IMG/VR virus record: IMGVR_UViG_3300045988_171089
Length of the DNA stretch: 64,000 nt
Reading direction: 5' to 3' (one strand)
DNA from: a virus
Position numbers and translations under genes: made by a program. This document shows positions 20,912-63,892 of the stretch, in pieces (the first letter of the stretch is position 1; every line of letters starts with the position of its first letter). The notes beneath the pieces were generated by a model. The model ran no database searches. It was not told the DNA's origin and worked only from the letters and a program-made list of their open reading frames with translations.

Positions 20912-20949
20912 ATATATAACACGCCACCAAAAAATGGTGAAGAGTGAAG

Positions 20950-21432: not shown

Positions 21433-21434
21433 CT

Positions 21435-21506
21435 AAGAAGGCGGGGTGTGTGACGGGACTCGAACCCGCTACTACTTGCGCCACAAGCAAGCGCCTCGCT
21501 ATTCGG
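21435..21506 (-). tRNA. tRNA-His(GTG)
   Basis: Acceptor GTGTGTG/CACACAC, discriminator C, anticodon stem CTTGC/GCAAG loop TTGTGGC, T-arm GCGGG-TTCGAGT-CCCGT; no encoded G-1 (base -1 is T). Confidence 0.7.
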
Positions 21507-21508
21507 CT

Positions 21509-21582
21509 TCACACACAGTGCCCCCTACTGGACTCGAACCAGTGACCCACGCCGTGTAAAGGCGGCACTCTAACCAACTGAG
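21509..21582 (-). tRNA. tRNA-Val(TAC)
   Basis: Acceptor GCCCCTT/AGGGGGC, D-arm GCTC/GAGT, anticodon loop TTTACAC, T-arm ACTGG-TTCGAGT-CCAGT; only 2 nt from tRNA-His. Confidence 0.7.
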
Positions 21583-21682
21583 CTAAAGGGGCGAAACGCA
21601 TACTATGTCCACTATCTTCCATCAACCAGTGAAGGAAACCGCGCCCATTACCCGTATGCGAGAGGCAAAGAACCCGGTACAG

Positions 21683-21756
21683 TAGTCCCTGCTGGACTTG
21701 AACCAGCGACACCCACCGTATCAGAGTGGTGCTCTAACCTGCTGAGCTAACAGACC
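21683..21756 (-). tRNA. tRNA-Ile(GAT)
   Basis: Acceptor GGTCTGT/AGGGACT (one G.G mismatch), D-arm GCTC/GAGC, anticodon stem CCACT/GGTGG loop CTGATAC, T-arm GCTGG-TTCAAGT-CCAGC. Confidence 0.65.
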
Positions 21757-21849
21757 AGGGTACGCCACTATGAGTGGCATATATACTATCCACTTAGGAT
21801 AGTAGCTCACGTTCGAGGGTGGTACACCCTAGAAGAACGTGTTACGCAC

Positions 21850-21912
21850 AGCCCGCCGGATTTGAACCGACACCTCCGTCACCCAGCGCACTACCCGATT
21901 ATACTAAGGCTG
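21850..21912 (-). ncRNA. non-canonical tRNA-like element (good 7-bp acceptor ACAGCCT/GGGCTGT and T-arm GTCGG-TTCAAAT-CCGGC, but only 35 nt between them and no recognisable D/anticodon arms)
   Basis: Acceptor/T-arm complementarity unlikely by chance; middle region cannot be folded into a standard cloverleaf. Confidence 0.35.
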
Positions 21913-22038
21913 TTGCCGCACCCCTACAAGCCGTTCACGTGATTAACTCGTATGATGCCCCTCAAGGCTCATGACAACCTCAAGGCACGACATGCTTTAA
22001 AGAAAAATGTACAGCCAACATGCCAAAACTGCACATAG

Positions 22039-22113
22039 TGCACCCTGTGGGGCTCGAACCCACGACCCGGCGGTTAAGAGCCGCCTGCTCTACCTGCTGA
22101 GCTAAAGGTGCGC
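22039..22113 (-). tRNA. tRNA-Lys(CTT)
   Basis: Acceptor GCACCTT/AGGGTGC, D-arm GCTC/GAGC, anticodon stem GGCGG/CCGCC loop CTCTTAA, T-arm GTGGG-TTCGAGC-CCCAC. Confidence 0.8.
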
Positions 22114-22227
22114 GGCGTACTGGCTGAAAGGGCTCGAAAGCACCAGTACGCCTTAATCAGTATTATTCGACTTTTGTCTTTAGTAAGCTTCCTGAAAGGA
22201 GTTAAGTAAAAAAGGAAGCTTACCGAG

Positions 22228-22297
22228 CATCTTACAGGGCTCGAACCTGTGACCTCCACACCAAAGTGCGGCGCTCTACCAACTGAGCTCAAGATGC
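22228..22297 (-). tRNA. tRNA, anticodon uncertain (possibly TTG/Gln); anticodon stem poorly paired
   Basis: Perfect acceptor GCATCTT/AAGATGC, D-arm GCTC-AGTTGGTA-GAGC, T-arm ACAGG-TTCGAGC-CCTGT; candidate loop CTTTGGT. Confidence 0.45.
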
Positions 22298-22439
22298 CGT
22301 CACAGCACAAATCAACTATGTGCACAGGTTTCACTGTACTATGACACCCCAGAGAGGATTCGCGAGTTCCACTCAAGAGGTCAGGGACTTTCGCGTTTAC
22401 ACCCCTGAATAATTGTAACGCACCATATAGCGCGTTCAG

Positions 22440-22517
22440 TACGCCCTACGGGACTCGAACCCGTGCCACTTGTCCCAGTCGGTGACTCCAGGGCTCTACC
22501 ATCTGAGCTAAGGACGT
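22440..22517 (-). tRNA. tRNA, anticodon undetermined (78 nt; extra nucleotides between D-arm and T-arm)
   Basis: Acceptor ACGTCCT/AGGGCGT, D-arm GCTC-AGATGGTA-GAGC, T-arm ACGGG-TTCGAGT-CCCGT; middle region CCTGGAGTCACCGACTGGGACAAGTGGC does not give a standard 17-nt anticodon arm. Confidence 0.4.
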
Positions 22518-22679
22518 TACCGCACCCTAAGTAACCACCAAAGGGTACACCTAAAGGCTCGCGACTTCCTCTAGGTTACTCAAAGAAGGTGAATAGGTAA
22601 AAGCCCTCCTTTGAGAAGTATTGACACATACGTTACAGCAATGTTTAAAAGTGTAGTTGATGTGTCTAAACTACACTAG

Positions 22680-22761
22680 TACGCCCGGAGGGACTTGAAC
22701 CCTCACGTCCGAAGACACAGGAACCTAAATCCTGCGTGTCTGCCAATTTCACCACGGGCGC
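22680..22761 (-). tRNA. tRNA-Leu(TAG) (type II, long variable arm)
   Basis: Acceptor GCGCCCG/CGGGCGT, 3-bp D-stem, anticodon stem CAGGA/TCCTG loop TTTAGGT, variable arm GTC-TTCG-GAC, T-arm GAGGG-TTCAAGT-CCCTC. Confidence 0.8.
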
Positions 22762-22790
22762 TTATACAAGATAGTGATTATCTTGCAGAG

Positions 22791-22863
22791 TGGACCGTAT
22801 GGGAATCGAACCCATGACCTCCTGCTTGCAAAGCAGGCGCTCTACCAATTGAGCTAACAGCCC
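22791..22863 (-). tRNA. tRNA-Ala(TGC)
   Basis: Acceptor GGGCTGT/ACGGTCC (G3.T70 wobble, Ala identity-like), D-arm GCTC/GAGC, anticodon stem CCTGC/GCAGG loop TTTGCAA, T-arm ATGGG-TTCGATT-CCCAT. Confidence 0.8.
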
Positions 22864-22929
22864 TCACCCTTCAGTGTTATATATGACTGAAGGGGTGTTT
22901 GTTAAGAAGTGTTTTAGGCTTCTTGTTTG

Positions 22930-23002
22930 TGCGCCCTACGGGGCTCGAACCCGTGACCCGAAGATTAAAAGTCTACTGCTCTACCAACTGAGCTAAAGGC
23001 GC
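22930..23002 (-). tRNA. tRNA-Lys(TTT)
   Basis: Acceptor GCGCCTT/AGGGCGC, D-arm GCTC/GAGC, anticodon loop CTTTTAA, T-arm ACGGG-TTCGAGC-CCCGT; preceded by promoter 23015-23043. Confidence 0.8.
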
Positions 23003-23014
23003 TTACAAGGAACA

Positions 23015-23043
23015 AGTATATCATGTTCCTTTGTGTTTTGCAA
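23015..23043 (-). promoter_or_regulatory. promoter TTGCAA-N17-TATACT immediately upstream of tRNA-Lys(TTT)
   Basis: Near-identical to the element at 9014-9042. Confidence 0.6.
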
Positions 23044-23113
23044 AATTCACTATTTAGTGTTGTCAATTATCTAGTGTCTAAGTAAACAGTGTTTTGCTGT
23101 CTTCTTGACTTGC

Positions 23114-23131
23114 GTACTCCCAACGGGATGA
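23114..23131 (-). pseudogene. short tRNA-Glu-like 3' fragment (ATCCCGTTGGGAGTAC) flanking repeat copy E
   Basis: Resembles T-stem 3' half + acceptor 3' strand of tRNA-Glu. Confidence 0.35.
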
Positions 23132-23297
23132 GTCACCCCCGTATATACGGTAGGTGAGCCAAAGCTTTACTTCGACGGTGACCCTCAAGCCAGCCTAAGC
23201 TGACCCTGGTCTTGACACGTGAATGTCCGTTTAGATTAGCCACCTCTCCCAGTCTCTCACAGGCGAGGTGAGTGAACACACCCTAGAGTATGTTACG
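23130..23297 (-). repeat. tRNA-linked structured repeat element, copy E
   Basis: Full-length copy directly 3' of tRNA-Glu(TTC). Confidence 0.7.
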
Positions 23298-23370
23298 TGC
23301 CCCTAACGGGATTTGAACCCGTGTTACCGCCGTGAAAGGGCAGTGTCCTTGGCCGCTAGACGATAGGGGC
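23298..23370 (-). tRNA. tRNA-Glu(TTC)
   Basis: Perfect acceptor GCCCCTA/TAGGGGC, 3-bp D-stem, anticodon stem CTGCC/GGCGG loop CTTTCAC, T-arm ACGGG-TTCAAAT-CCCGT. Confidence 0.8.
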
Positions 23371-26073: not shown

Positions 26074-26932
26074 TGTGTGCCGCCTTAATTTTCTTAACCT
26101 TTTCCACTAGCATAAGGTTAGTTAGCGCCTTCTCATCAAGCGTTTCCCCGGCAAGCTCAGCGGCGGCTTCTAGCCGCGCCTGGAGGGTCTTAATGTTTCG
26201 GCTAACATCACCATTATCAAGGTTGCTTGAAATACTTGACACGATAGCGGCACTATTAGCGATTCCGCCCAGGGCTTCTAGCTGATTGAGGTTAATCTCG
26301 ATGGTGTTGATGTTCGCATCAAGTGACTGTACGTGCTTTTGAATCTCAAGGATGGAGCTTTCCGCGTGCTTGATGTCGTCTTCTACACGGGTGAGGCGTG
26401 CCGCAAGCTCTAGAACTTCCGCATCTTCAGGGCTACCTGAATATTTGTGGATTTGGTAGTTCAGGTTGTTCTTTTCGGCGTTGTAGTTTGCCAGTAGAGC
26501 ACGTAGGTTATTGAGTGGTTCTGCTACTTCTCCTAGTTCCTGTCGTGCTTTGGCGTGCTGGTGCTTTAGGTGCTTGGTGTCCGGGTGGGTTTCTCGCATG
26601 TCGTATACGTGCTTTCCTTTGAAAAATTTGTACTGGTCGATGATGTCTAGGCTTCGGGCTGTTCGTCCCCTATATGCTTGAAATGCGGGGCGGAGTAGCT
26701 TCTCTAGGTCTTCCTCTGTGATTCCCTGTGCATTGGTCTTGAGCTTCGCGTAGTAGTCCCGCATGGACTTTTTGAGGACTGCTCGCTGGTTTGGGTCTGT
26801 GGTGTGTAGCAAGGTGCGTTCTGTGTCACCTTGTGCGAAGCGCCTTACTTGAATGTTTACACTCATTATATTTTTCCTGTCTTCTAGGGGGTATTGTCGT
26901 ATTGTGGATACCCTGCTTTTGGGGGCAACCAA
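26066..26932 (-). CDS. coiled-coil hypothetical protein (288 aa)
   Basis: ORF track. Confidence 0.55.
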   Translation of the reverse strand: MVAPKSRVSTIRQYPLEDRKNIMSVNIQVRRFAQGDTERTLLHTTDPNQRAVLKKSMRDYYAKLKTNAQGITEEDLEKLLRPAFQAYRGRTARSLDIIDQYKFFKGKHVYDMRETHPDTKHLKHQHAKARQELGEVAEPLNNLRALLANYNAEKNNLNYQIHKYSGSPEDAEVLELAARLTRVEDDIKHAESSILEIQKHVQSLDANINTIEINLNQLEALGGIANSAAIVSSISSNLDNGDVSRNIKTLQARLEAAAELAGETLDEKALTNLMLVEKVKKIKAAHNA

Positions 26933-29712: not shown

Positions 29713-30501
29713 TTACTTGAGAGTAATCTTAGCCTTCTTGGAGCGGCGCTCATCAACCTCTACCGATTCAATAATGAAGGTGTGCCCTGCAAGACCTGAA
29801 GCGATAGACTCAGGTGCAGTGAGGATAATTAGCGGCTCGCGCCTGTTGTACTTGCTGGGGATACAAACGGCAATGTTGTCACTAATGAAGACGACTTCAC
29901 GCTCTGTGATGTGCTTATTGGCAAGGTACTCTGCGGGGTTCTTATCCTTGAAGCTGTAGAGCGGGGAATAGTCGTAGAGGAACTCTTCAAATTCCCAGTT
30001 GTCACCCTTGCTGAAGTTTACGGTCACCTCAATGGGGTGTTCCGGGGTGAAGCTGGTTGCCAGATGTCGCTTCTCCTTGGCGTACCACGTGATAGCTTGC
30101 TTAGCTTCTTCGCTCTTGTCGTGGTTTCGTGGCTTGTGAGGGCGGCTGGAGCCATCGAGTACGACCGCCTCACCTTTCTTTGTCCAGCCGTAGAGGGTGC
30201 TGTGGTCCCAGTAACCCATGAGGCTGTTCTCCCGCTTCTTCACGTCATAGTCGCGGTTCAGCAAGATAGTAAGTGAAGCCGCGCCATAGGTTTCAGGGAA
30301 GTGGATACCTACGGGGTCTTCTATGTAGAGGTAACAGTCATCAAGGAAGGAGGGGTTCTCATCCTTCAGATAGGGGTGCTTCTTGAGGTCGGCGGGGGTC
30401 ATGCGTCGAACCTGTCCCGTGTCAATAGTGTTCTGTACTAGGTGCTTGTTGTAGTTCCAGACGATTTCCCAGATGAGGTGTCCTGCGTCGGTGATGCTCA
30501 T
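29713..30501 (-). CDS. hypothetical protein (262 aa)
   Basis: ORF track. Confidence 0.55.
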   Translation of the reverse strand: MSITDAGHLIWEIVWNYNKHLVQNTIDTGQVRRMTPADLKKHPYLKDENPSFLDDCYLYIEDPVGIHFPETYGAASLTILLNRDYDVKKRENSLMGYWDHSTLYGWTKKGEAVVLDGSSRPHKPRNHDKSEEAKQAITWYAKEKRHLATSFTPEHPIEVTVNFSKGDNWEFEEFLYDYSPLYSFKDKNPAEYLANKHITEREVVFISDNIAVCIPSKYNRREPLIILTAPESIASGLAGHTFIIESVEVDERRSKKAKITLK

Positions 30502-30523
30502 GATGTGTCCTTTCTTAGGGGGG

Positions 30524-30991
30524 TTAGTTTACGGCTTTGGTTGCTTCTTTGAGCTTGTTGCGTCCGTAGTTGTATAGGGTGATTGAGCGGTCGAGGAAGT
30601 TTTTAGCTTCCTGGAGTCGTTTCATTTGAATATCGTAGGTGGTTAGCTCTTCGATTCCTTCGTAGGGGATTGCTGTGAAGTCTTCGTTGAGGGTTTGGGC
30701 TACGTCGTTTGTGAAGGCGAACCTGTGGGTGTCGATGTCGTTTGAGAGCTTAACCAGGTCAGCGTATAGTGACTGATTGGTTTTGGCTAGGGTGCCGTCA
30801 TTGATTTTCTCTTCAATGTTGATGGTGTTGAAGTTCGTGTATGCCTCTGTTACGGCTTCTACACGCTTCGTGTCAAGCTCTTCTTGCTTGAGGGCGACTA
30901 GGGTACGGTCTGCTTCAAGCTGTAGCTCATATAGGGCTTCAAGCTTTACACCAATGTTCGCTAGTACTTCGTCCATTTCAGGGGTATTCAT
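30524..30991 (-). CDS. coiled-coil hypothetical protein; start moved to ATG 30991 (SD GGAAAGGAAAAGG)
   Basis: ORF track 30524..31147; internal ATG with strong SD. Confidence 0.5.
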   Translation of the reverse strand: MNTPEMDEVLANIGVKLEALYELQLEADRTLVALKQEELDTKRVEAVTEAYTNFNTINIEEKINDGTLAKTNQSLYADLVKLSNDIDTHRFAFTNDVAQTLNEDFTAIPYEGIEELTTYDIQMKRLQEAKNFLDRSITLYNYGRNKLKEATKAVN

Positions 30992-31196: not shown

Positions 31197-32732
31197 CTAG
31201 AGGTAGTTTTCCTCAGCATCTAGAGGCTCTAGGGTAGGCTCAGCTTCCTTCTTAGTATCCTTAGCGGCGTTATTGATTCCGCTACCAATAGCTCGACCGG
31301 TTACGGTTGCCTGAATCAGGTCACGAACGTCAAGTCCTAGACCGGCGGTTACCTTGTCCATGCTGGTCATGATGTCTCCAACCATCTGCCCGGCATTACC
31401 TTCACCGTACATGGTGATGCTATCAACATTGTTCAGTGGCTCAGATACGGCGCGTGCAACTTCAGGTAGGACATTGACAAGCATCTCGATAACAGCGGCA
31501 TCCTTCATCTTGAGCATTGCCTCTGCCTTCTTGTCTAGACCGTCTGCTTCTGCTTCAAGCTTGAGGCGCACTGCTTCTGCTTCAGCTTCACCACGTAGGC
31601 GGATTGCGTCTGCTTCTGCTTCTGCCGTCATCTTGAGAGCTTCCGCTTCCTGCTGGCGGCGGTAAGCCTCAGCTTCAGCGGTCATCTTCAGCACTTCTGC
31701 TTCCTGCTGGCGGCGGTACGCTTCAGCTTCGGACTTCTTCATGCTCTCGAACAGTTCAGCCTGTGCGCGCTGTTCACGTGCTCGACGTTCAGTGTTCGCG
31801 GTTTCTTCAACCTCAGCGACTAGGGTCTGCTTTCGGACTTCGACTTCCTTAGCCTTGACCTGTGCTTCCTTTTCCTGCCGGACAATGTTAGCGTTAGCGC
31901 GGGCGGCTTCGGTTCGGCTTCGCTGGTTCTCGTACTCAGTCTCGAACGCGGCTTCAGCGATTGCTCGTTCCTTCTCAGCTTCAGCCTTGAGCTGACTCTT
32001 AGAAATTTCGAGCTCGTTCTGCCTCTTAGCGATTTCCTTATCAGCGGCGACACGTGCGTCGTTTGCCAGCTTTTCAGAGCTTGCCTGCTGTTCCTCAATC
32101 TTCTGGGTTGCGATAGCCTTAGCGGTTGCCGCTTCCTGTCGAATCTTCTCGGTATTGTCAGCACCAAGGTTGTCGATAACACCCTTATCGTCACGGACGG
32201 TCTGGATGTTGAACGCTACGATTTCTAGACCCATTTCCTCTAGGTCGTTCGTTGCGTTTTCCTGAACCTTGTTAGCGAGCTGTTGCCTATCTTGGACGAT
32301 AGCCTTCAGCTCCATTTCACCAATGATGGAACGCAGGTGACCTTCAAGGGTTTCACGTACCGAGTCAGCGATTTCAATATCAGTCCTGCCGAGGAAGTTT
32401 CGGGCGGCAACCTCGAACAGTTCCTTACGGTCTAGACCAATACGTACCTTCACTTCAGCTTCAGCCTGCACATTGATAAAGTCGTTAGTAGGGGTGCTAC
32501 CGTTCGTCTTCACATCAATAGATACCATGCTTGCGGTCATGGAGTCTACACGCTCAATGAACGGGACACGCCAACCAGTCTTACCCTGTAGTACACGGAT
32601 ACCACGGCGACCTGAGATGACCTTCACCTCACCGGGGCTTGCCGATACGATACCTGCCATGAAGATTGCCACACCGATACCAATGATGATGAGTGCGGCT
32701 ACGGCGATAATTAGTAGGTTCGCTACTTGCAT
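31197..32732 (-). CDS. SPFH/band-7 (flotillin-like) membrane protein with long coiled-coil tail
   Basis: N-terminal TM (LLIIAVAALIIIGIGVAIFMAGIV) then SPFH-like core (EVKVISGRRGIRVLQGKTGWRVPFIE...) and EA-repeat coiled coil; start moved to ATG 32732 (SD GGAAAG). Confidence 0.75.
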   Translation of the reverse strand: MQVANLLIIAVAALIIIGIGVAIFMAGIVSASPGEVKVISGRRGIRVLQGKTGWRVPFIERVDSMTASMVSIDVKTNGSTPTNDFINVQAEAEVKVRIGLDRKELFEVAARNFLGRTDIEIADSVRETLEGHLRSIIGEMELKAIVQDRQQLANKVQENATNDLEEMGLEIVAFNIQTVRDDKGVIDNLGADNTEKIRQEAATAKAIATQKIEEQQASSEKLANDARVAADKEIAKRQNELEISKSQLKAEAEKERAIAEAAFETEYENQRSRTEAARANANIVRQEKEAQVKAKEVEVRKQTLVAEVEETANTERRAREQRAQAELFESMKKSEAEAYRRQQEAEVLKMTAEAEAYRRQQEAEALKMTAEAEADAIRLRGEAEAEAVRLKLEAEADGLDKKAEAMLKMKDAAVIEMLVNVLPEVARAVSEPLNNVDSITMYGEGNAGQMVGDIMTSMDKVTAGLGLDVRDLIQATVTGRAIGSGINNAAKDTKKEAEPTLEPLDAEENYL

Positions 32733-32982
32733 TATGTAGTTATTCTTTCCGTCGTGGGACATTGCAGATTCACAGACCACTACCCCCGGCGGGTTCGTGT
32801 CTTAAACCTTTAGGGGCGTGTTCATGGTGCCCTGTGAATCTTTGATGTTTCCCAGTGTACACGTGAAGCCGTAGGTTTATCAACTCAGCGGGCGTGTTTC
32901 ATGACTTGATAATAAAAAGAAAGGGGCACCTACCTGCTACTGTTAGCGAGTAGGTGCCCCTCACGCGGGTGCATATGTGCAG

Positions 32983-46503: not shown

Positions 46504-47028
46504 TTACGATTGCTCTAGGGTTTTAAGGTGTGCGAGTGATACTAGGGCATTAACGCTTTCTGCAAGAATAACCCATGCTAGACCAATAAGGTTTAGGAGC
46601 AAGGAGATACCCCAAAAACCCAAGGTTCCGCCATTTGCGGAAGATATTACACCAAAGGCTCCAGTTACAATAACATTCATAATAAACCCTAGTCCTACAA
46701 CTGCCCACATACCATCTTCGTTTTTAAATACGCAGATAGTAGACTTATTGTTTCGGCAACCTATAAAGTTCACAACACCCCAATCAAGAAGCACCCAAAC
46801 AAAAATCATTAGCGGGGCAAAGATAAGCAATAAGGCGGACGTTATAGCCTGAAACACTGGGAGGTCTTCTCTATTCATATACTCTCCGTAGTCCACAATA
46901 TAACCTGGACGCTCAAACCCAGCCTTACCTTCATTCCACAGTAGGGCTGTGTACTGGTTTACGGGCTGGTCTTTATTCTGTTGAATAATGATGTTTTCTA
47001 GGTGCTCTTGTGGGGTAAGTTTCCGCAT
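46504..47028 (-). CDS. membrane protein (174 aa)
   Basis: Several TM helices. Confidence 0.5.
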   Translation of the reverse strand: MRKLTPQEHLENIIIQQNKDQPVNQYTALLWNEGKAGFERPGYIVDYGEYMNREDLPVFQAITSALLLIFAPLMIFVWVLLDWGVVNFIGCRNNKSTICVFKNEDGMWAVVGLGFIMNVIVTGAFGVISSANGGTLGFWGISLLLNLIGLAWVILAESVNALVSLAHLKTLEQS

Positions 47029-47054
47029 TGTGGGGTTCCTTTTTAGGTGAGTGG

Positions 47055-47618
47055 TTACCGTGCTAGTAGTTCCTTGATGTATGCTTCGTCGTCTAGCTTG
47101 TCTAGTTCTTTGTATTCGCCCTGAATTTCATTGTATGCCTTGAGGGTTTCGTGGCTGAGGTTCAGGTCGGTGTCGTCTACATTGGGTAGCGCGTTGATGC
47201 GTTGTACGTTGCTAATTAGGGATTTGGTGGCGGCGGTGAGGCGCTTGTTGCGTAGGGCTTCGTTGAGTTTGGTTGCGGCTTCTTGTCCGGCGCGTACCAT
47301 TTCGGTTGGCTGTTCAACGGTTTTTTCCTGTGCGGGGATGATTTGCTTGTCTAGTACCTTTGCGGTGCGGATTAGGTCGCTCTTGTAGGGATTGGTGCTT
47401 TCGTTGCCGCCTATGGCGCGCAGGGCTTCGATAATTTCTTCGAGGTCTTGACGGGTTGCCGTTAGGGTTGCTTTCGCCTGATACTGTAGGGCAATGTTGA
47501 TACCGTTTGCTTTGTTGATTTTTTTGAGCTCACGGTTTATCTTGCGGTCGCTGAGCATGAGGCGGATTCCTTTACGGGCGGGCTTTGAGGTGTTGAACAT
47601 TGGGCGTGTTCCTTCCAT
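47055..47618 (-). CDS. hypothetical protein (187 aa)
   Basis: ORF track. Confidence 0.5.
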   Translation of the reverse strand: MEGTRPMFNTSKPARKGIRLMLSDRKINRELKKINKANGINIALQYQAKATLTATRQDLEEIIEALRAIGGNESTNPYKSDLIRTAKVLDKQIIPAQEKTVEQPTEMVRAGQEAATKLNEALRNKRLTAATKSLISNVQRINALPNVDDTDLNLSHETLKAYNEIQGEYKELDKLDDEAYIKELLAR

Positions 47619-47634
47619 TAGGGGGGTCTGTTGT

Positions 47635-47985
47635 TTAGGGAATGTAGATAGTGTAGGTGTCGCTTTTTCCTAGATTTTCGAGGCGTAGGGCATGTTTGGC
47701 TAGTGCCTTGTAGTAGGCTGTTCGTCCGCGCTTATTCCAGCGGCGGGCGGCTCGACCTTCCTGTGTGATGGTTTTGATAGCGCCCAGCATAATATTTTGT
47801 GCATTTTGGCGTACCTGTGGGTATTCGGTGGTCATGATTACGGTTGAGGCACGCTTTTCCATGCAGGACAGTAGCCAGCCTACCTCTGGGGTAATGAGGC
47901 GGTTTAGGTTGTGTCCGCTTAGGGCGGGCTTACCGTAGTCTTTACTGTTGATTTTGGCGATAAGTTCTTGAATGTCCTTGTTCAT
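47635..47985 (-). CDS. hypothetical protein (116 aa)
   Basis: ORF track. Confidence 0.5.
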   Translation of the reverse strand: MNKDIQELIAKINSKDYGKPALSGHNLNRLITPEVGWLLSCMEKRASTVIMTTEYPQVRQNAQNIMLGAIKTITQEGRAARRWNKRGRTAYYKALAKHALRLENLGKSDTYTIYIP

Positions 47986-55890: not shown

Positions 55891-56115
55891 AGTGTTATTT
55901 CCTTCCAGGTGGGAAATGGTGGATTATGTGGCTAGATGGGTTTTCTAGCGCCTATGTAAGCCATTATGTCAGGCTTAACCGGGGGCGTGCAACTCTCAAA
56001 GCCAAACACGCCTAATTATACAGGTGCCCCGGTCTATAGGGGTACAGTAGCACCCCGCCCTGCATGTCTCACGCTAGGGCGGGGTGTTTGTCATAGGGTT
56101 ACCCCTATGGGGTGG

Positions 56116-56451
56116 TTACATGAAGGTCACACAGGGGACTTCGTTCACACCCAGGGTTACAGCCTGTGAATCAAAAGCAGGACTTGCAGGCTCTTCGATA
56201 AGAACATCAAGCCCAATGTACTTGGTGCACGCCTTATCGGTGAAAAGCTCAAGGGTTACACTGCTTACGCCATACTTATTAATCTTGTAGTAAAGAACCG
56301 TGTCGGGGGTAATACCCAGACCCATCATAACACGCTTGAAGATGTAGCTAAAGTTTTCGCGTCCATCGTAGTTTACATCTTCGAGTGCGTTCAGCATGTA
56401 AGACTTAGCGTTGCTCTCGGTGAAGATGTCCTGAATTGCGTAGGTGCTCAT
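56116..56451 (-). CDS. hypothetical protein (111 aa)
   Basis: ORF track. Confidence 0.5.
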   Translation of the reverse strand: MSTYAIQDIFTESNAKSYMLNALEDVNYDGRENFSYIFKRVMMGLGITPDTVLYYKINKYGVSSVTLELFTDKACTKYIGLDVLIEEPASPAFDSQAVTLGVNEVPCVTFM

Positions 56452-56675
56452 GGTCGGTAACCTTTCGGTAGATAGATAGTGGATTCATTGCTAGGGGCTT
56501 TCCCCCTTGCTATACTTCTATTATGACACACCCATAACCCCTATGCAAGTTAAAAACGTGTGAATTAGGTCACATAGGGGTTATGGGGCGTGTTCTACTA
56601 TCTTCTACCTACAGGCCTTAGTGTCTCTAGGGGTCTATCAATCTATCGAGCGGTTCGCAGTCTAGGTAAGACTCC

Positions 56676-57092
56676 CTAGTAGACGGCAACCTCAATCTTC
56701 CTGATAATCATTTGCGCTGACTCTTCAGATTCACCGCCCTGCACTTGGTAGGAAGTAATATAGGCATCTGCAACCCCAAAGCCAGCCAATAGGTACATTA
56801 CCCGCCAATTTTCCACCTCCAAGGTTCCACGGATGAGGGTGCCATCTTCACGCCTGAAGTAAACTTCAAGGCTCGGGGTAAGCTCACATTCCATATCCGA
56901 GTCATACGCTTGCACTAAGGCGATAGGGTAGACACTCTTCCTTACTTCTTCTACCGTGATGTATCCGTCTAGGCTGGCGGGTGGCTGTTCCAAGGAAAGA
57001 TACTCTACGACTTCCTTACGCTTATCGGGGGCGACACTAAGGGTTAGGTGCGCCTTAATTTCTTCATCTAATTCAATGATGGTGGCTGACAT
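56676..57092 (-). CDS. hypothetical protein (138 aa); last gene before the compositional island
   Basis: ORF track. Confidence 0.5.
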   Translation of the reverse strand: MSATIIELDEEIKAHLTLSVAPDKRKEVVEYLSLEQPPASLDGYITVEEVRKSVYPIALVQAYDSDMECELTPSLEVYFRREDGTLIRGTLEVENWRVMYLLAGFGVADAYITSYQVQGGESEESAQMIIRKIEVAVY

Positions 57093-57121
57093 GTTGATTC
57101 TTTCTAGGGGTCATGTATTGC

Positions 57122-57141
57122 GGGGGGGGCACTCCCCCCCC
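57122..57141. other. G8-CACT-C8 perfect hairpin / homopolymer pair
   Basis: gggggggg cact cccccccc directly upstream of gene 56676..57092. Confidence 0.5.
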
Positions 57142-57299
57142 TGTTCGCTCCAAAGAGGTGGGGGCCTTATGGGTCTTACGGTGCGACTGAGATGGTATAG
57201 TTCTGGTACATTGCCGCAAGGCGCTCGCAAACCACCCAAAAACAACCCCTACAGGTTGATTATAGACCCCAAAAATGAAGAAAATGCACCCCAGTGCAT

Positions 57300-58440
57300 A
57301 ACGCACTGACAAGGGAAAAGGCTACTTTCCACACAGGGCCAGATACCCAAAAAACCACCCAAAACCATTATACCAAAAAACAACCCCAAAAACAGGCAAA
57401 AACCACCCCCAAAAACCCAAAAAAAACACCCAAAACAGACCACACCCCACCAACAACACCCCCAAAACACCCACCACAAAAACACAAAACCCCCCGACAA
57501 GGCAAAAGACACAAAAACATACACACAGACACAACACCAAAAAACAAAAAAGAACAACAGAACACCAGGGCACCTAACCACCCGGCACCCACCACACTAC
57601 CCCGCCCTACCTTACCCTACCGCCCTCCTTTAACCTCCTCTACCCCTCCACCCTTTCTAGCCCTTACCCCTACCTTACCCTTTATTACCCTGCCCCCTGT
57701 CTAGCCTTCCTTTACCCTTGTTCCCTTACTGTGTGTGTCTGTGTGTTCTCTCTATGTATGTGTTCTGTCTAGCTGTTCTTTTGTTCTGTATGTGTGTTCT
57801 CTTTCTGTCTAGCTTTTGTGTTGTTCTGTCTAGCCTGTTGTTCCCCCCTGTGTGTGTTCGTCTGTTATGTATCTGTGTCTATTGGGTCTGTGTTCTGTGT
57901 CTGCTGTGTGTCTGCTTATTGTGCCCCCTTGTGTGTTCTCTTATGTGTGTCTACTGTATGTGTCTTATATATGTGTGGCGTGTATCTGTTATTGGTCTGT
58001 GTGTCTGTGCTTGTGTCTTGCTTACTGTGTCTGTGTGTACTGTGTACTGTGTACTGTGTATCTGTGTCTCTTATATGTATGTGTGTGTTATTCCTGTGTG
58101 TACTGTGTCTGTGTTCTATGTGTGTTATGTATCCTCTCTATTCTGTATGTGTATCTGTGTGTCTGTGTTCCTTATTTCTTGTGTATGTTCTCTGTTCTTG
58201 TTCTGTGTTTGTGTTGTTGGTTACCCTGTTGGTGTGGCGTTTATCATGGTGGTGTGATGGGCGCTTGTTTTTTGGGTTTGGTGGTTTTGGTTTTTTGGGG
58301 GGTGTGGCGTGTGTGGAATTTTTTTATTTTTTTATTCACGGTTCCTGGTGGGTGGTCGTCTTTTGCTAGGTTTTTGTTATCGCACATTTTTTTGCGGGCT
58401 CCCCTGGGGTTTGTGTCGCGCCCGAAATTTTTTTAAAGAT
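57300..58440. repeat. extreme low-complexity, strand-asymmetric non-coding island: top strand A/C-only (57300-57590), C/T-only (57590-57720), then G/T-only with TG/TCTG microrepeats (57720-58440)
   Basis: Near-total absence of G/T then of A/C on the top strand; all six frames open (no stop codons possible), so ORF-track entries here are compositional artefacts. Confidence 0.7.
58395..58435 (+). terminator. plus-strand intrinsic terminator candidate (hairpin CGGGC...GCCCG + TTTTTTT)
   Basis: gcgggctcccctggggtttgtgtcgcgcccg followed by aaattttttt. Confidence 0.4.
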
Positions 58441-58846
58441 ATAACACACTCATACTGTGGTTATGTGATACTTGTGATGAGCTTATATATGCCTCTGTTG
58501 GCGTACTTATACCACACCCTGCATTGTTCTGATATTGCACCCGTTTATACTTGTGCCCGTGTCTGCCTTTGCCTGTGTTCGTATCTGCTTGCGTCTATGT
58601 CACCCCCGTGTTTCATTCCATGTTGCCCCGGTATTGTGTCTACTCTTATACCTTGTCTTGTGTCTACTTGTGCTTGTAGTATGTTTTAGTATGCCGTGGG
58701 TTACACCCTGTGTTGTGTGCCTACCTCTAGTGTTTAGTGGGTGTGCCGTATAGGGTGTGTTACTTGTTGTGGTGTGTTTCACTTGCTGGTTTTATACCCC
58801 TTTTTTCTTATGTCTGTTTGTTCTTTTGGAAGGATTGTGTTTACTG

Positions 58847-60430
58847 ATGTCTACCCGCCTTATTGATGCTGATACCCCTAGTGTTGGTGGTTCTGTTATT
58901 GAGTCTACTGGTGTTGGTGCTGATGCTACTTTTGTTAATGCTTGGTGCCCTGGTAGTGTTGCTTCTGCCCCTGATGGTGTTCTTTCTGGCGGTGGTGTTC
59001 TTTACACCCCTTCTACCCCTGCTGGGTCTGGTGATGGTGTTTCTGGGGGTGTTCTTTCTGTGCCTGGTTTTGTTCAGGTGGGGTGGGGTTCTTCTGGGTG
59101 GGGTGTGTCTTCTAGTGGTAGTATTTTGTCTCATGTGGAGGAGGCTTGGGGGTATGGTTACTCGTTTGTACCCCCTGTAGACCCTGTAGAGTCTTCTGTG
59201 GGGTCTTTTATGTCTGGGGTGGGTGATTGTGCCTCTGGTGTGTTTGAGCGCCACCGTGAGCCGTCTGTGGGTTCTGGGTCTGTTTTGGGTGTTGAGGTGC
59301 CTGTTTCTAGTGTTTGGGATGGGTTTTTGGTGTCTGTTGGTGGTGTGTCTTCGGGTGGTGGTGTTGTGTCTACTAGTGGTGGTGTGCCTTTGTCTTTTGT
59401 GGAGGGGGCTTCGGGTGTTTTGGGTTGTGTTTCTGGTGGTGGTTTGTCTGTTGTTGGTGGTGTTGGTGTGCCTTTGTGGGAGGGTTTTGTTGCTGATTTT
59501 TCGGGTTTGAGTGTTACGTCTGCTGGGTTTGGTGCGTTGCCTTTTGGTGGTGGTTCCACTTCTGGTGGGTCTGCTAGTGGTGATGCTTTGGTGGGTTGTT
59601 TTCCTTTGAGTGTTGATGTGTGCCCTAGTGTTGGGGCTGGTGTTGTTGGTGTTTCTGGTGGTTCTGTGGGTGTGTCTTTGGCGGGTGTTCCTGTGGTGTA
59701 TGGTGTGTCTGGTTTTGGTGGTTTTTCTGTGTCGTGGGGTTTGTCTTCGGCTTCTTTGGGTGTTTTGTCTGTTGGTGGTGGGGGTTCTGGTTGGCGTGGT
59801 GTTTTGGGTGTTTCGGGTTTGGGTGCTGGTGGTTTTGTGCCTGGTGTTGTTGGTGTTTCTGGTGGTGTTGGGGTTGGTTCTGAGGTTGTTGTTGATGGTG
59901 TGACTCATAGGGGTTTGGTGTTTGGTTCGCGTTTGGCTCCTGGGGGTTTTGTTGATGTGGCGGGTTCTGTTGGGGTTGGTGCGTCCGGGTCTGTTGATGG
60001 TGTTGCATTGGTTGATGTGTCTGATGTTGAGTTTGGTTCTGTTGGTGGTTTGGGTGGTGTTTCGCCTGTTGGTGGTAGGGTTGCTGGTTTGGGCCGTTTC
60101 GCCGGTTGGTGGCTTGTTCGTAATTGGGTTGGGTCTGTTGTTGGTGGTGTGGGTCGTGCCGCTTGGGGTGATGTTGTAGGGTCTGTTGGTGTGGGTTCTG
60201 TGCCTGGTTCTACTGGTTTGGGTTTGGGGTTTGTTGCTGGTAGTGAGGGTTATGGTTCGCCGGTTGGTGTTGTGAATGGTGGTGGTGGTTCTGCTGGCTT
60301 GTTTGGTGGGTCTGTTGGGGTTGGTGCCGGGTTTGTTGGTGGTGTTGTTGATGTTCCGGTTGGTTCGCCAGTGGTGGGTTTGGGTGTTGATTTGGTGGAT
60401 GTTGCCGGGTTTGTGTCTGACCTATTGTAG
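58847..60430 (+). CDS. Gly/Val/Ser-rich low-complexity protein (528 aa) on the opposite strand to all other genes; codons almost exclusively NNT/NNG
   Basis: ATG 58847 preceded by SD GGAAGGA; strong 3-nt periodicity with T at third positions (ggt gtt tct gct gat ...); terminator hairpin 60486-60530 directly downstream; ORF track extends upstream to a GTG at 58757. Confidence 0.5.
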   Translation: MSTRLIDADTPSVGGSVIESTGVGADATFVNAWCPGSVASAPDGVLSGGGVLYTPSTPAGSGDGVSGGVLSVPGFVQVGWGSSGWGVSSSGSILSHVEEAWGYGYSFVPPVDPVESSVGSFMSGVGDCASGVFERHREPSVGSGSVLGVEVPVSSVWDGFLVSVGGVSSGGGVVSTSGGVPLSFVEGASGVLGCVSGGGLSVVGGVGVPLWEGFVADFSGLSVTSAGFGALPFGGGSTSGGSASGDALVGCFPLSVDVCPSVGAGVVGVSGGSVGVSLAGVPVVYGVSGFGGFSVSWGLSSASLGVLSVGGGGSGWRGVLGVSGLGAGGFVPGVVGVSGGVGVGSEVVVDGVTHRGLVFGSRLAPGGFVDVAGSVGVGASGSVDGVALVDVSDVEFGSVGGLGGVSPVGGRVAGLGRFAGWWLVRNWVGSVVGGVGRAAWGDVVGSVGVGSVPGSTGLGLGFVAGSEGYGSPVGVVNGGGGSAGLFGGSVGVGAGFVGGVVDVPVGSPVVGLGVDLVDVAGFVSDLL

Positions 60431-60485
60431 GGTTCGTGTCCGGTTTTGGGTTGGTGTTTTATTTGGTGTTTTGGGTGTTAGTAAA

Positions 60486-60530
60486 CCCCCGGTGCCTGTG
60501 TTGTTCAGGTTGCCGGGGGTTACTTTGTAC
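60486..60530. terminator. hairpin (CCCCCGGTGCC...GGTTGCCGGGGG) + T-rich tail; terminator for plus-strand gene and probably for minus-strand gene 60559..61152
   Basis: 36-nt core identical to the hairpin at 61269-61301. Confidence 0.5.
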
Positions 60531-60558
60531 CTAGAGGGGGTAATGGTTAGTGTATTGC

Positions 60559-61152
60559 CTAGTGTAAGGCGGTGCTGATGTCTAGGTATAGTAGTAGGTT
60601 GTTGATTTCTTCGTCTAGTTTTTCGGGGTATTCGTTGAGGTATTCCATGATGCTGTACCCGCCATGTTGTAGGCTTTGGCGTGTGAGGCGTATTGCTACT
60701 TCCCAGGGGTAGCAGTAGATTTTTCCGGGGCTGGGGTAGTCTAGGTGGGTTTTGATGATTTTCTGGATTGCGTGGTCGATAGTTCCGTCTTTGAACTGGA
60801 AGGCGGGGTAACCTTTGGGTTTATTGTGGTCGTCAAGTTTGAGGATGAGGTGGTCATTTACTAGCTGATTCAGCTCTTCTTTGGTGATGTTGAGGTATTT
60901 ACAGGTAGTGGTTGTATTGTAGAGTTTGCCTACGGTGTTGAGGATTTGTTCTTTAGGGGTTTGTTGGGGTTGGTGCTGGTATTCGAGGACGTATTTTGCA
61001 ACGGTGGCTTTTAGTTTGAAGGCTAGGTCGTTGCAGTTTTCTGTGGTGATATTGAGGTTGCCGTGGGTGGTTAGGCAGTCGATGTATTCGGTGATTTCTT
61101 TCTTTACGATTTCGGTGGGTGCGGGGTTGTTGTTTGCTTCCGCGTGGGTCAT
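60559..61152 (-). CDS. hypothetical protein (197 aa)
   Basis: ORF track. Confidence 0.5.
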   Translation of the reverse strand: MTHAEANNNPAPTEIVKKEITEYIDCLTTHGNLNITTENCNDLAFKLKATVAKYVLEYQHQPQQTPKEQILNTVGKLYNTTTTCKYLNITKEELNQLVNDHLILKLDDHNKPKGYPAFQFKDGTIDHAIQKIIKTHLDYPSPGKIYCYPWEVAIRLTRQSLQHGGYSIMEYLNEYPEKLDEEINNLLLYLDISTALH

Positions 61153-61268
61153 TAGGGTTCCTTTCAGGTAAGTTTAGGGGTGTCGGTGTGACACTTATAG
61201 GTGTAGATTACCACACTGGATAGGTGTGTACAACTTTCTTGTTCTTGGTGTGGCTGGGTGCCGTGAAT

Positions 61269-61311
61269 CCCCGGTGCCTGTGTTGTTCAGGTTGCCGGGG
61301 GTTTCTTTTTG
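61269..61311 (+). terminator. hairpin + TTTCTTTTT (plus-strand intrinsic terminator form); second copy of the repeated hairpin
   Basis: ccccggtgcctgtgttgttcaggttgccgggggtttcttttt. Confidence 0.45.
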
Positions 61312-61341
61312 CGTATGTGGCGTGGTGTTGATTGCGCCTGC

Positions 61342-61566
61342 TTATTTGCTGTTTTCGAGTGCCACAGAGACACTTTCGTATGGTGTGTTGGGGTGGTTTT
61401 CGTACTCGTATTCTGGGGGTTCTGACATTGCGATGTTGTTTACCCAAGCCCTCCAGTCGTATTCCTCTTCGTTGGTTTGCCAGCCTGGTTCCCCTGGGTA
61501 TTGTTCTGGTTCGTTGCCTATGGTATCGGTGGGCTCGTAGCTACAGTTGATGTGGTAGAAGCTCAT
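61342..61566 (-). CDS. small hypothetical acidic protein (74 aa)
   Basis: ORF track. Confidence 0.4.
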   Translation of the reverse strand: MSFYHINCSYEPTDTIGNEPEQYPGEPGWQTNEEEYDWRAWVNNIAMSEPPEYEYENHPNTPYESVSVALENSK

Positions 61567-61627
61567 GGTGGGTGTTCCTTTTCTGGGTGTGGGATACGTG
61601 GTTTCTGTGTTGAAAAGGTAGTATGAA

Positions 61628-61675
61628 GCCCCGGTAACCTGTGTTTTGTTTGGGTTGCCGGGGCTTATTGTATTT
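61628..61675. terminator. third copy of hairpin family (11-bp stem CCCCGGTAACC/GGTTGCCGGGG) with T-rich tail
   Basis: Variant of the 60486 and 61269 hairpins. Confidence 0.4.
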
Positions 61676-61678
61676 GGG

Positions 61679-62239
61679 TTACTTTCCCTGTTTGGGGTCG
61701 ATGAGGATTTCGATTCGGTTGCCCCAGTCAGTCCAGATGAGGTTTCCTACGGGGTAGGTCTTACTGTCTAGGTTAAGCCATTCTTTCATGGTTAGCCCTC
61801 CCCATCCACCCTCTAGGTAGGTTGTCATTGACGCACCTACAGGGTTTTTGCCTTCGGGGTCGTTGGTGAAGATTGCGTCAATTCCGATTTCACCAATGCC
61901 GTTTTCGATTTCGTCTTCATCACCGGAGTTTACCCATACGTTGAGGTGGGCGTACATCTTGTAGGGGGTGTTGTTCACCTTTTGGTGTTTGCTTGCATGG
62001 AACGCCATGAGGAGTGCTAGGTGCCTGGCGGCCTCGGAGTATGGTTCGGCTTTGACGAATTTTCGTTGGGGTTCGTCTAGGTTAAAGTGTCCGGGTAGAT
62101 TGACCCAGCCTGCTTTGTGGAGCTCGATGTCTCGCTTGATGATGTTGTTGAAGCTGGGGTTGTCGGTGGCATTTTCGTTGCCTCCCCAGAAAATGTAGCT
62201 GGCGAGGGTGTCTTCGTAGGTGATGGGTTTCTGTGCCAT
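61679..62239 (-). CDS. hypothetical protein, paralog of 63329..63892 (186 aa from ATG 62239)
   Basis: Both end ...I(E/T)ILIDPKQGK and share PYKMYAHL(N/D)VW; ORF track start 62722 adds a 160-aa His/Arg/Pro/Gln low-complexity artefact from the C/A-rich strand. Confidence 0.55.
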   Translation of the reverse strand: MAQKPITYEDTLASYIFWGGNENATDNPSFNNIIKRDIELHKAGWVNLPGHFNLDEPQRKFVKAEPYSEAARHLALLMAFHASKHQKVNNTPYKMYAHLNVWVNSGDEDEIENGIGEIGIDAIFTNDPEGKNPVGASMTTYLEGGWGGLTMKEWLNLDSKTYPVGNLIWTDWGNRIEILIDPKQGK

Positions 62240-62322
62240 TTTGTCTTTCTTTGTTGGGTGTTTTGGGGTACCGGTGTGGCACCTGTAGGTATAGGTTACC
62301 ACACCGGCTAGGGGTATGCAAA

Positions 62323-63219
62323 CTATTCGGTGTAGGGTATGGTGTAGTCTTCGGGGTCGGGTTCGTACCATTCGGATTGTTCGAGTTTTTTGATGACGTT
62401 GTTTAGCATTGTGGTGAGTTGTTTTTGTTGTTTGGGTGTTAGGTTTTTGCTGTTTGGGGTTTGGGGGTCGGTGCTGTTGGTGAGGTGTTTTAGCTCTTCT
62501 GCGTAGTCGATGGTGTAGTCGATGATGAGGTCGTAGGAGACTCCCCATGCGTAGCCGTCGCTGTAGTCGGTGCTGATTTGTTCCCAGTATGTGTCGGTTA
62601 GGTAGTCGGTGGTTAGGGTGGTTTCCCAGTCTTCGCCTTTGACGGCTTTTTGTTTTAGGGTGTTCCAGTGGGGGTGGTTGATGATGGTTTTTAGGGCTTT
62701 TGCCGCGTCGTGGGGTACACATTCTGTGTTGTTGTTGTTTAGGTAGAATGTGTGGATGGGGGTTAGGCTGTTGGTGTTCGTGTTGATTTCTTTTTGTAGT
62801 TGGGGTGTTAGGTGTACTCGTTTTTGGGTGGGGCTGGTTTGTGATTGTACTAGGGTTACGTCTGGGTTGATGGTTTCTATGGTCTTCCAGATGTTGATGT
62901 CTTCGTCGTTGTTTTTGGTGATGATGGTGTATTCGGGTTTGTTGGTGGTGGCTTTTATGGTGTTGTTGTTGTGGGAGTTGAGGTCGATGATTTGGGGTGT
63001 TCGGGTGTTGTGTACTGGTGTGGTGGTGGTTAGGGTTCCGTTGTGTAGGGTTGCGGTGATGGTTTGGGGTGCGGTTGCGCTGTTGGTGGTGTGCTTGCGT
63101 TCGGCGGTGATGGTGTCACCGTCAATGTGGGTTACTTTGTATAGACTTTTTTCGTTGTTGTTTTGCAGGATGAACGCTTCGCTTACGGTTAGGGTGTGGG
63201 GTGCTAGGGGGATTCGCAT
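62323..63219 (-). CDS. Thr/Asn-rich hypothetical protein (298 aa)
   Basis: ORF track; composition mirrors the local G/T enrichment of the top strand. Confidence 0.5.
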   Translation of the reverse strand: MRIPLAPHTLTVSEAFILQNNNEKSLYKVTHIDGDTITAERKHTTNSATAPQTITATLHNGTLTTTTPVHNTRTPQIIDLNSHNNNTIKATTNKPEYTIITKNNDEDINIWKTIETINPDVTLVQSQTSPTQKRVHLTPQLQKEINTNTNSLTPIHTFYLNNNNTECVPHDAAKALKTIINHPHWNTLKQKAVKGEDWETTLTTDYLTDTYWEQISTDYSDGYAWGVSYDLIIDYTIDYAEELKHLTNSTDPQTPNSKNLTPKQQKQLTTMLNNVIKKLEQSEWYEPDPEDYTIPYTE

Positions 63220-63328
63220 AGTGTTTTACTCTCCTTGGGTTTGGTGTTGGTGGTTTAGTGGTGGGTACTGTTTAGGGCACCCCCTACTTGTTAGTTTAAG
63301 GGGGTGCCCTTTGTTGGTTTACAGGGGG

Positions 63329-63892
63329 TTACTTGCCCTGTTTGGGGTCAATAAGAATTGTGATTTCCTTACCCCAGTCAGTCCAGATAGGGGTTCCGAT
63401 GGGGAAGGTTTTACCGTCCAACTTGACCCATTCTTCGGCGGTGAGTCCGGCGTAAGTGTCGTCCCATTCAAAGCCCAGGTAGGTAAACATTGCTACACCA
63501 ATCTTGCGCTTACCTTCAGGGTCACTAGTGAAGGTAACATCAACCCCAAGTTCACCAATACCATCCTCATCTTCGGAGTTCGCCCATACGTCAAGGTGGG
63601 CGTACATCTTGTAAGGGGTGCCAGTTTCCTTCTGATGCTTACTCGCAAGGAACTTGATAAGGTGTGCAAGGTGCTTACCGGTTTCGGTGCCCTGTTCAGC
63701 CTTCACGATTTCTCGTTGGGGTGCATCTAGTTCAAAGGTGCCAGGGATTGATACCCAACCTTCCTCGCGGAGCTCGTTCTCGCGCTCAGCAATGTTCTTG
63801 CCGGTCTGGTCTTCCTTATTAGGGTTGTCGGGTGAGGTGTAGAAGACGTAGTACTTGCTAATGTTTTCGTAGGACAGATGGTTCTTTGCCAT
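63329..63892 (-). CDS. hypothetical protein, paralog of 61679..62239 (187 aa)
   Basis: See 61679..62239. Confidence 0.55.
   Translation of the reverse strand: MAKNHLSYENISKYYVFYTSPDNPNKEDQTGKNIAERENELREEGWVSIPGTFELDAPQREIVKAEQGTETGKHLAHLIKFLASKHQKETGTPYKMYAHLDVWANSEDEDGIGELGVDVTFTSDPEGKRKIGVAMFTYLGFEWDDTYAGLTAEEWVKLDGKTFPIGTPIWTDWGKEITILIDPKQGK

Follow-up and report, generated by a model that had tools for sequence, protein, structure and literature searches.

Positions 58847–60430 of a 64,000-nucleotide (nt) stretch of DNA recorded as viral (IMG/VR virus record IMGVR_UViG_3300045988_171089; the whole stretch is referred to here as the window) contain an open reading frame (ORF) whose predicted product consists largely of glycine, valine and serine. 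The locus raises the question of whether such an ORF is a gene at all and, if so, how it acquired its composition. In DNA this strongly skewed, long ORFs crowd both strands, yet comparison with related sequences makes it likely that this bizarre-looking ORF is a real, conserved plus-strand gene (GVS, after its Gly/Val/Ser-rich product) whose composition is imposed by a bias of the DNA strand.

The GVS ORF (58847..60430, +; 527 codons from ATG, stop included in the coordinates) has a base content of 5.4% A, 12.7% C, 39.6% G and 42.3% T. At third codon positions, T accounts for 67.6%, G for 26.1%, C for 4.9% and A for 1.3% (94% keto, that is, G or T). A first-pass annotation, made by a model from the letters alone, had described this usage as near-pure NNT; T does dominate, but the wording is overstated and the pattern is really NNT/NNG. 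Codons made of G and T alone account for 58% of the gene, and the majority of its codons are GGT, GTT, TCT, GTG, TTG or GGG. The product (for example, in the stretch SWGLSSASLGVL) is 26.4% Gly, 20.9% Val and 14.8% Ser, or 62% for these three residues and 81% for G, V, S, L, A, P and F together. Lys, Arg, Asp and Glu together make up 8% of the protein, with no Lys at all.

Could an ORF of this kind be open by chance? In 20000 plain shuffles the ORF never stays open, while shuffles that preserve the composition of each codon position are open in 350/20000 cases (1.75%; mean, 3.9 stops). Given the period-3 pattern, openness by itself is therefore only moderately surprising. With little A on one strand and little T on the opposite one, the remaining five frames also hold ORFs, of 85–355 amino acids (aa). 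These results would suit the view that GVS is a compositional artefact of DNA with 5% A, in which stops are rare on either strand, as would the scarcity of stops in one of the antisense frames of related sequences (0–8 in frame -0) and the plainly spurious Cys/Val-rich ORFs that gene callers, public gene calls included, place on the adjoining low-complexity DNA.

Related loci argue otherwise. With the 197-aa gene at 60559–61152 (-) as an anchor, 38 related loci were retrieved. The plus frame of GVS has 0 stops in 28/28 loci, down to 41% identity; the other plus frames of these loci have 5–42 stops and the minus frames 0–28. When 16 close sequences are aligned as nucleotides, each of the 15 distinct gaps has a length divisible by 3, so that every indel is in frame. 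The ratio of nonsynonymous to synonymous substitution rates (dN/dS; Nei-Gojobori method) at approximately 17% divergence is lowest in the plus frame (0.65–0.68), compared with 0.85–0.87 in frame -0 and 0.96–1.1 in the rest. A homologue is also encoded in DNA of normal composition, where the other frames have 13–29 stops each (discussed below), and the ribosome-binding site is conserved. An artefact is largely refuted by these observations, and we consider that reading very improbable.

The start of the gene is also well marked. A Shine-Dalgarno-like GGAAGGA (58828..58834, +) lies 12 nt 5' of the ATG at 58847. The same motif precedes the minus-strand 245-aa, 533-aa and 197-aa genes at similar spacing, and it is kept in six GVS orthologues although it is A-rich amid A-poor DNA; the sequence looks functional, and the reading of the first-pass annotation, a good Shine-Dalgarno sequence before a gene that begins at this ATG, is borne out. 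The stop-bounded ORF is longer (58757..60430, +; 557 aa from a GTG) and encloses the 527-codon ORF, and its additional N-terminal segment had been proposed to be signal-like. Orthologues do not share this extension: in eight of them the frame is closed by a stop two codons 5' of the ATG, which places the GTG-58757 extension outside the gene. A sigma-70 promoter scan found none upstream of GVS, and the regional count was not above that of shuffles. A small additional argument for translation of the plus frame may be drawn from the preference for pyrimidines at four-fold degenerate sites, which at 78% in GVS resembles that of distant window genes (62–74%).

A real gene might instead lie on the minus strand and encode one of the Pro/Thr-rich or Gln/His-rich peptides read there. 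Minus is the coding strand nearly everywhere in the window (more than 70 genes), and frame -2, with its NNA third positions, gives a plausible-looking Pro/Thr-rich linker. Frames -0, -1 and -2 are interrupted in the window by 1, 6 and 17 stops, respectively, however, and these counts differ even among near-identical (95%-identical) relatives. The minus-frame dN/dS of 0.85–1.1, the lack of a Pfam match and the fact that the ordinary-composition homologue is read in the frame corresponding to the plus frame also argue against this possibility, which we find scarcely credible. Constraint on the minus frames was looked for through both dN/dS and stops and was not found, and the antisense ORFs are best described, as they were at first, as compositional mirrors of the plus frame. 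The accompanying claim that GVS is the sole plus-strand gene of the window is plausible, as the other long plus-strand ORFs either sit in A-poor DNA or share their positions with more convincing minus-strand genes.

The homologue of ordinary composition is the decisive piece of evidence. In a tblastn search, the GVS protein matches 29/38 related loci, at identities of 88–94% (14 loci), 73% (two loci), 41–43% (nine loci) and approximately 30% (L022 and L024). L022, L024 and L037 encode P0093, a 605-aa homologue whose gene contains 26% A, 29% C, 26% G and 19% T, and which matches the window protein with E = 7e-30 in composition-adjusted BLASTP. The two proteins have in common the motifs SWG[LV]S[SA]AS[LI]G, GLGAGGFVPGV, VVD[VG]DG, GLGLGF.AG.EG, SAGLFG and GSP..GLGV, as well as W, P, D, E and R residues conserved at scattered positions. 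A third type (P0096/P0150) is intermediate in composition, and the members in L017 and L023 are more extreme than that of the window (A 2.3–2.6%). Replacements from P0093 to the window protein are mostly A>V, E>G, I>V, K>G, S>G, N>S and T>V, a pattern that corresponds to the one expected from C>T and A>G changes on the sense strand. P0093 displays the earlier, ordinary state of the GVS protein. Residues that cannot be encoded without A or C (P, D, E, R and others) are kept 10–11 times over compositional expectation in comparisons with the 49%-identical L017 and L021, and 10–18 times over it overall, suggesting selective retention.

Beyond these loci the family is sparsely represented. It comprises 55 clusters in a set of 5.8 billion proteins, and when P0093 was searched exhaustively with HMMER against 1.84 billion representatives, the seven matches all belonged to the same family, with no tie to any known one. 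GVS belongs to a small orphan family confined to one family of giant (250–380 kb) plasmid-like elements from human-associated metagenomes.

Several results weigh against a functional gene. Purifying selection is weak: dN/dS in the plus frame is 0.63–1.03 for shallow pairs (although the Nei-Gojobori method is unreliable under such base bias), and substitutions between close pairs are spread near-evenly over the three codon positions (e.g. 22/14/23). Searches of Pfam, PHROG, NCBIfam and PDB sequences with the window protein, P0093 and the family profile found no match. AlphaFold2, run on 25- and 30-sequence alignments, gave a predicted local distance difference test (pLDDT) score of 38 for P0093 and 30 for the window protein, with no confident fold; because these values are so low, a fold search was not justified. 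Such features would also be expected of a decaying former gene that has lost its function and remains open mostly since stops are hard to make in A-poor DNA. The range of dN/dS (0.65–1.0), the even substitutions, the loss of nearly all charged residues (K+R+D+E 8%, no Lys) and the lack of a predicted fold all fit decay, and substitution counts lead to an estimate of only about two G>A events that would have created stops in the whole of the shallow tree. Decay does not readily account for 15 in-frame indels out of 15, for the complete lack of stops across deep lineages, for conservation of the start and of a ribosome-binding site that contains A, for the retention of P, D, W and E residues far above compositional expectation, or for the position beside the low-complexity region and a MobC-like gene that the family keeps in all arrangements. 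We consider decay unlikely and favour a conserved, protein-coding gene under weak constraint.

What, then, imposed its composition? Four-fold sites are 93% G+T in GVS and 88–96% A+C, on their own sense strand, in the four minus-strand genes to its right. A+C on the sense strand of these neighbours is G+T on the same physical strand as the GVS sense strand: the bias is a property of the DNA strand, whichever orientation a gene has. Genes past approximately 63.3 kb or left of 57.1 kb have ordinary four-fold composition. The protein products are shifted in the same way. The residues C, V, F, G and W (CVFGW) and Q, T, P, H, N and K (QTPHNK) make up 55% and 8% of the GVS protein, respectively, compared with 8–11% and 41–49% of the products of the adjacent minus-strand 197-aa and 298-aa genes; CVFGW amounts to 28% in P0093 and to 15–20% in the other genes compared. 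GVS is written mostly in GGT, GTT, TCT, GTG, TTG and GGG codons because it is read from the G+T-rich strand, and because its codons are drawn from that strand, 55% of its product is C, V, F, G or W. The first-pass annotation had instead read the product as a fibrous or repeat protein with a codon usage of its own. Tandem Repeats Finder (TRF) reports weak 2–3-copy matches in the GVS region and nothing stronger, and the neighbours share the bias in mirror form, so that this description does not hold.

The 197-aa gene (60559..61152, -), which is convergent to GVS, has 88% A+C at four-fold sites. It has 92 homologues, almost all on 250–380 kb metagenomic contigs; no exact copy of its protein sequence is on record, and the GTDB representative genomes contain no relative of it. 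Two ORFs farther to the right have been lengthened by the skew. At 61679–62722 (-), a 347-aa ORF carries a low-complexity N-terminal extension, while in relatives the C-terminal 187 aa alone are called. At 62750–63730 (+), a 326-aa ORF, probably spurious, overlaps a pair of more convincing minus-strand genes.

The biased DNA has a definite geography. GVS lies within an arm that is G+T-rich on the plus strand (approximately 57751..63250; keto skew approximately +0.5), so that the skew zone extends over at least 5.5 kb in which one strand is approximately 80% G+T. GVS is adjoined by a 1.2-kb low-complexity region (57200..58440, here termed the rainbow region) in which the strand skew changes sign. 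The region is composed of an A/C-only block (57200–57560), a C/T-rich block (57560–57720), a TG-repeat block (57720–58220) and a G/T block (58220–58440), and its large imperfect inverted symmetry may amount to A/C-only DNA opposite G/T-only DNA. Matching low-complexity architecture is found in the distant loci L017 (approximately 12300–14700) and L038 (3838–4757). At the edge of the region, 57118–57142 contains a G8...C9 hairpin, GCGGGGGGGGCACTCCCCCCCC, just 5' of the start of a 138-aa minus-strand gene.

In most related loci, crossing the region takes keto skew abruptly from strongly negative to strongly positive (L001, L002, L015, L017, L018, L021, L023, L025, L031, L035 and L038), and both arms fade outward over 5–12 kb. 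On either arm, the G+T-rich strand runs 5' to 3' away from the centre. Genes directed outward (GVS, the MobC-like gene and the right-arm genes of L001) therefore have G+T-rich sense strands and products enriched in G and V, while inward-directed genes are A+C-rich. Such a skew would arise from a mutational process that distinguishes the strands and has the low-complexity region as its centre. If the region were a bidirectional origin of replication, the displaced strands would remain single-stranded for long periods and deaminate (C to U and A to hypoxanthine), as in vertebrate mitochondrial DNA and its ND6 gene. As the polarity of the skew matches that of a bidirectional origin, we give this mechanism about an even chance. 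A conjugative transfer origin as the sole cause was also considered and judged unlikely, since a single transferred strand would give no sign reversal.

A number of observations count against an origin of this kind. Hallmarks such as an initiator gene, DnaA boxes or iterons have not been demonstrated. The repeats seen in the region are degenerate low-complexity ones and three copies of TCTGTCTAGC, which was rejected as an iteron on the grounds that its copy count is not significant window-wide. The window itself has one skew arm, with approximately 350 bp of a second one left. At 57225/57234 it ceases to align with L001, L002 and L015, which at that point hold an extra 4.6–6.4 kb that constitutes an oppositely skewed second arm with G+T-rich sense genes, and it appears that the window has lost this arm. 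Substitutions polarised to the window lineage (58500–61300, against 13 relatives) include 88 T>C and 78 G>A compared with 33 C>T and 29 A>G, although parsimony inflates common-to-rare changes, and the ratio of per-base substitution rates favours keto bases by just 1.4–1.7. Unless parsimony misleads, the strong bias may no longer be acting and the skew may be relaxing in this lineage. Finally, L037 contains a skew-neutral island (2000–5500, comprising the P0093 gene and most of the next gene) within a G+T-rich arm. A purely positional mutation model would not predict this island without recent recombination; stronger selection could be an alternative cause.

Selection could also have produced the skew itself, by acting on the DNA or RNA rather than through mutation. 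Candidates include avoidance of palindromic restriction sites (conceivable because a strand of G and T alone cannot form palindromes), the maintenance of unstructured A+C-rich messenger RNAs, and R-loop-prone, G-rich non-template DNA that primes replication. Such selection would be compatible with a skew that is extreme and sharply bounded, with an architecture conserved in distant relatives, with a present substitution spectrum that lacks a strong directional bias, and with small single-gene skew islands elsewhere in the window. On the other hand, single-strand exposure linked to replication would itself produce a skew that reverses sign and decays outward, and genes of both orientations show the bias, most strongly at four-fold sites. 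Upkeep of the skew by selection is accordingly given a low probability here, and we retain mutation spreading from an origin as the working explanation. Both the strand-imposed composition and its centre, a conserved low-complexity region that is probably an origin, had been missed by the first-pass annotation.

Small, isolated keto-skew islands (+0.3 to +0.44) are present at 47001–47750, 30501–30750, 5751–6000, 1251–1750, 2251–2500 and 26501–26750, and a single skew centre leaves them unexplained. A 187-aa gene at 47055–47618 has 87% A+C at its four-fold sites.

The relatives also indicate what kind of element carries GVS. All arrangements have the family member in first or near-first position next to the low-complexity region, directed away from that region. 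In L037 and L038, the GVS-family gene is followed directly by a gene for a 548–550-aa protein that is 58% identical to a 540-aa opposite-strand protein of L001. This protein is MobC-like, with a weak match to the NCBIfam MobC replication-relaxation family (E = 3e-5, below cutoff) and no match in Pfam, PF13814 included. In the arrangement of the window, a minus-strand block that includes the 197-aa gene lies between the GVS and MobC-like genes; the arrangements differ in what separates these two genes (insertions). An inversion shifting the gene to the other strand was considered for L022 and dropped, because L037 and L038 show that the gene always adjoins the low-complexity region and is directed away from it.

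Beyond the MobC-like gene, relatives encode T2SSE, AAA_31, AAA_10/TraG-like and, weakly, TcpE proteins; these plasmid-type genes sit in the relatives (250–380 kb contigs), outside the window. Phage hallmarks (capsid, portal, terminase and tail) are lacking among the approximately 20 window proteins scanned, and megablast of positions 56000–62000 against 50,697 phage records found no match. One 56-kb relative is recorded in IMG/VR. The phage framing of the first-pass annotation is doubtful in light of these gene contents, and the element looks plasmid-like, with a replication and transfer module, rather than like a phage. The accession prefixes of four related contigs are among those of the 29 genome assemblies of a human pregnancy microbiome study (PMC6169887).

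Because of its gene association, we tentatively suggest that the GVS protein could be a low-constraint, largely disordered, Gly-rich partner of the MobC-like protein that acts at the low-complexity region in replication or transfer. A broader proposal is more speculative still: the rainbow region might represent an undescribed type of replication or transfer origin, in undescribed giant plasmids of the human microbiome, at which long-lived single-stranded DNA or R-loops hypermutate 5–12 kb on each side.

Other contents of the window are as follows. There are 16–17 transfer RNA (tRNA) genes, all on the minus strand, at 20068–23370 and 8927–9002. Many of them decode A/C-rich codon families (three Lys, Asn, Thr, His and two Glu), and that at 22225–22297 has an odd anticodon loop. 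The minus-strand cargo includes a PHROG 'RNA-binding protein' (phrog_850; 2916–4517), an RNA ligase (12664–13731), a PHROG 'transposase' (phrog_506; 18381–20045), PspA/IM30 (9225–10112) and a relative of the flotillin family (31197–32780), the last of which is related to phage-annotated flotillin-family proteins.

Downstream of GVS, the first-pass annotation had placed a terminator composed of a hairpin and a T-tail. The hairpin (approximately 60480..60524, +), which lies between the convergent GVS and 197-aa genes and is terminator-like, is real, with a predicted folding energy of -27.8 kcal/mol on the plus strand and -24.3 kcal/mol on the minus strand (z about -4.5); its tail, UUACUUUG, is weak. 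A scan for terminator consensus features omitted this hairpin because its loop is longer than 8 nt. A second copy (61262..61312, +) is followed by UUUCUUUUU on the plus strand. The two have an identical 28-nt core, CCGGTGCCTGTGTTGTTCAGGTTGCCGG, at 60489–60516 and 61271–61298 in direct orientation; the copies therefore flank the 197-aa gene and constitute a repeated element rather than a terminator of GVS alone. U-tracts are better on the plus strand, most of all past the second copy, and these features agree with plus-strand termination. In L031, the 197-aa protein is just 49% identical to that of the window, while the surrounding 6.8 kb are 86% identical and the GVS protein is 92% identical. 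This mosaic pattern suggests a cassette boundary, or exchange, at the hairpins around the 197-aa gene.

The locus is instructive for annotation and for protein evolution. Among the public gene calls near it are artefacts, including Cys/Val-rich 'proteins' and GVS-family members that have been given long, false N-termini, yet the equally strange-looking GVS ORF is likely a genuine gene. The family forms a gradient from ordinary (P0093) through intermediate (P0096) to extreme composition (the window, and L017/L023 with 2–3% A), and this gradient reveals which residues are retained when mutation pressure drives a protein to a six-letter alphabet. If an origin at the rainbow region is indeed the cause, then proteins here have been rewritten into reduced alphabets, and a GVS protein that still works would be a natural experiment on tolerance of compositional recoding. 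The two-armed skew zone is a probable origin marker in widespread, largely uncharacterised giant extrachromosomal elements, and it hints that replication, or the exposure of single strands, proceeds there in an unusual way.

Four known systems invite comparison. A member of the family, P0125, has been named PE-PGRS by the Joint Genome Institute (JGI). Like GVS, the PE-PGRS proteins of mycobacteria are glycine-rich and of low complexity, but identity with them was rejected: there is no PE domain (no Pfam family at E<=0.1) and there are no GGAGGX repeats. Unlike that of PE-PGRS proteins, the glycine richness of GVS is largely imposed by base composition.

The element as a whole resembles the Inocles, giant extrachromosomal elements of oral Streptococcus (PMC12340149). 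Both are hundreds of kb in size, occur in the human microbiome and consist mostly of unknown genes, and both have tRNAs, conjugation-type ATPases and a conserved MobC-related replication-relaxation gene. Inocles, however, have a GC content of 24–32% and switch gene orientation at the origin and terminus, whereas this element has a GC content of approximately 50% and more than 70 co-oriented genes. Identity with Inocles was rejected on GC content, and the MobC-like protein also falls short of PF13814; the two are set apart here by description rather than by InoC sequence.

In bacteria, G+T enrichment of the strand that leads outward from the origin shifts codon and amino-acid usage according to gene orientation, and the skew flips at the origin. 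McInerney in 1998, and Lafay and colleagues and Rocha and colleagues in 1999, reportedly described the resulting differences between leading- and lagging-strand proteomes, for example in Borrelia burgdorferi. Effects of the Borrelia type span entire replichores and amount to a few per cent; in the present case, G+T climbs to 93% at four-fold sites, and the effect dies away within approximately 10 kb.

The closest parallel is found in mitochondria. Strand asymmetry shapes the composition of mitochondrial proteins, ND6 especially (Min & Hickey 2007; PMC2779903), and the skew has been attributed to deamination of the strand that is single-stranded during replication (PMC2779903). ND6, like GVS, is a lone gene opposite nearly all others in DNA with a strong amino/keto strand skew; its product is rich in C, V, F, G and W, while the other proteins are rich in Q, T, P, H, N and K, and in both cases the effect peaks at four-fold sites and is lessened by functional constraint. 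GVS differs from ND6 in being far more extreme (CVFGW 55%, compared with 8–11% in two adjacent neighbours), in being local rather than genome-wide (5–12 kb arms around one low-complexity region of a 250–380 kb element) and in its bacterial, plasmid-like setting, for which the replication mechanism is inferred. GVS nonetheless displays what characterises an ND6-type gene, namely mirror-image four-fold sites in oppositely oriented genes, a CVFGW/QTPHNK shift and a homologue of ordinary composition from which it differs by the predicted changes. The phenomenon itself is known from ND6; this extreme case of strand asymmetry is new.

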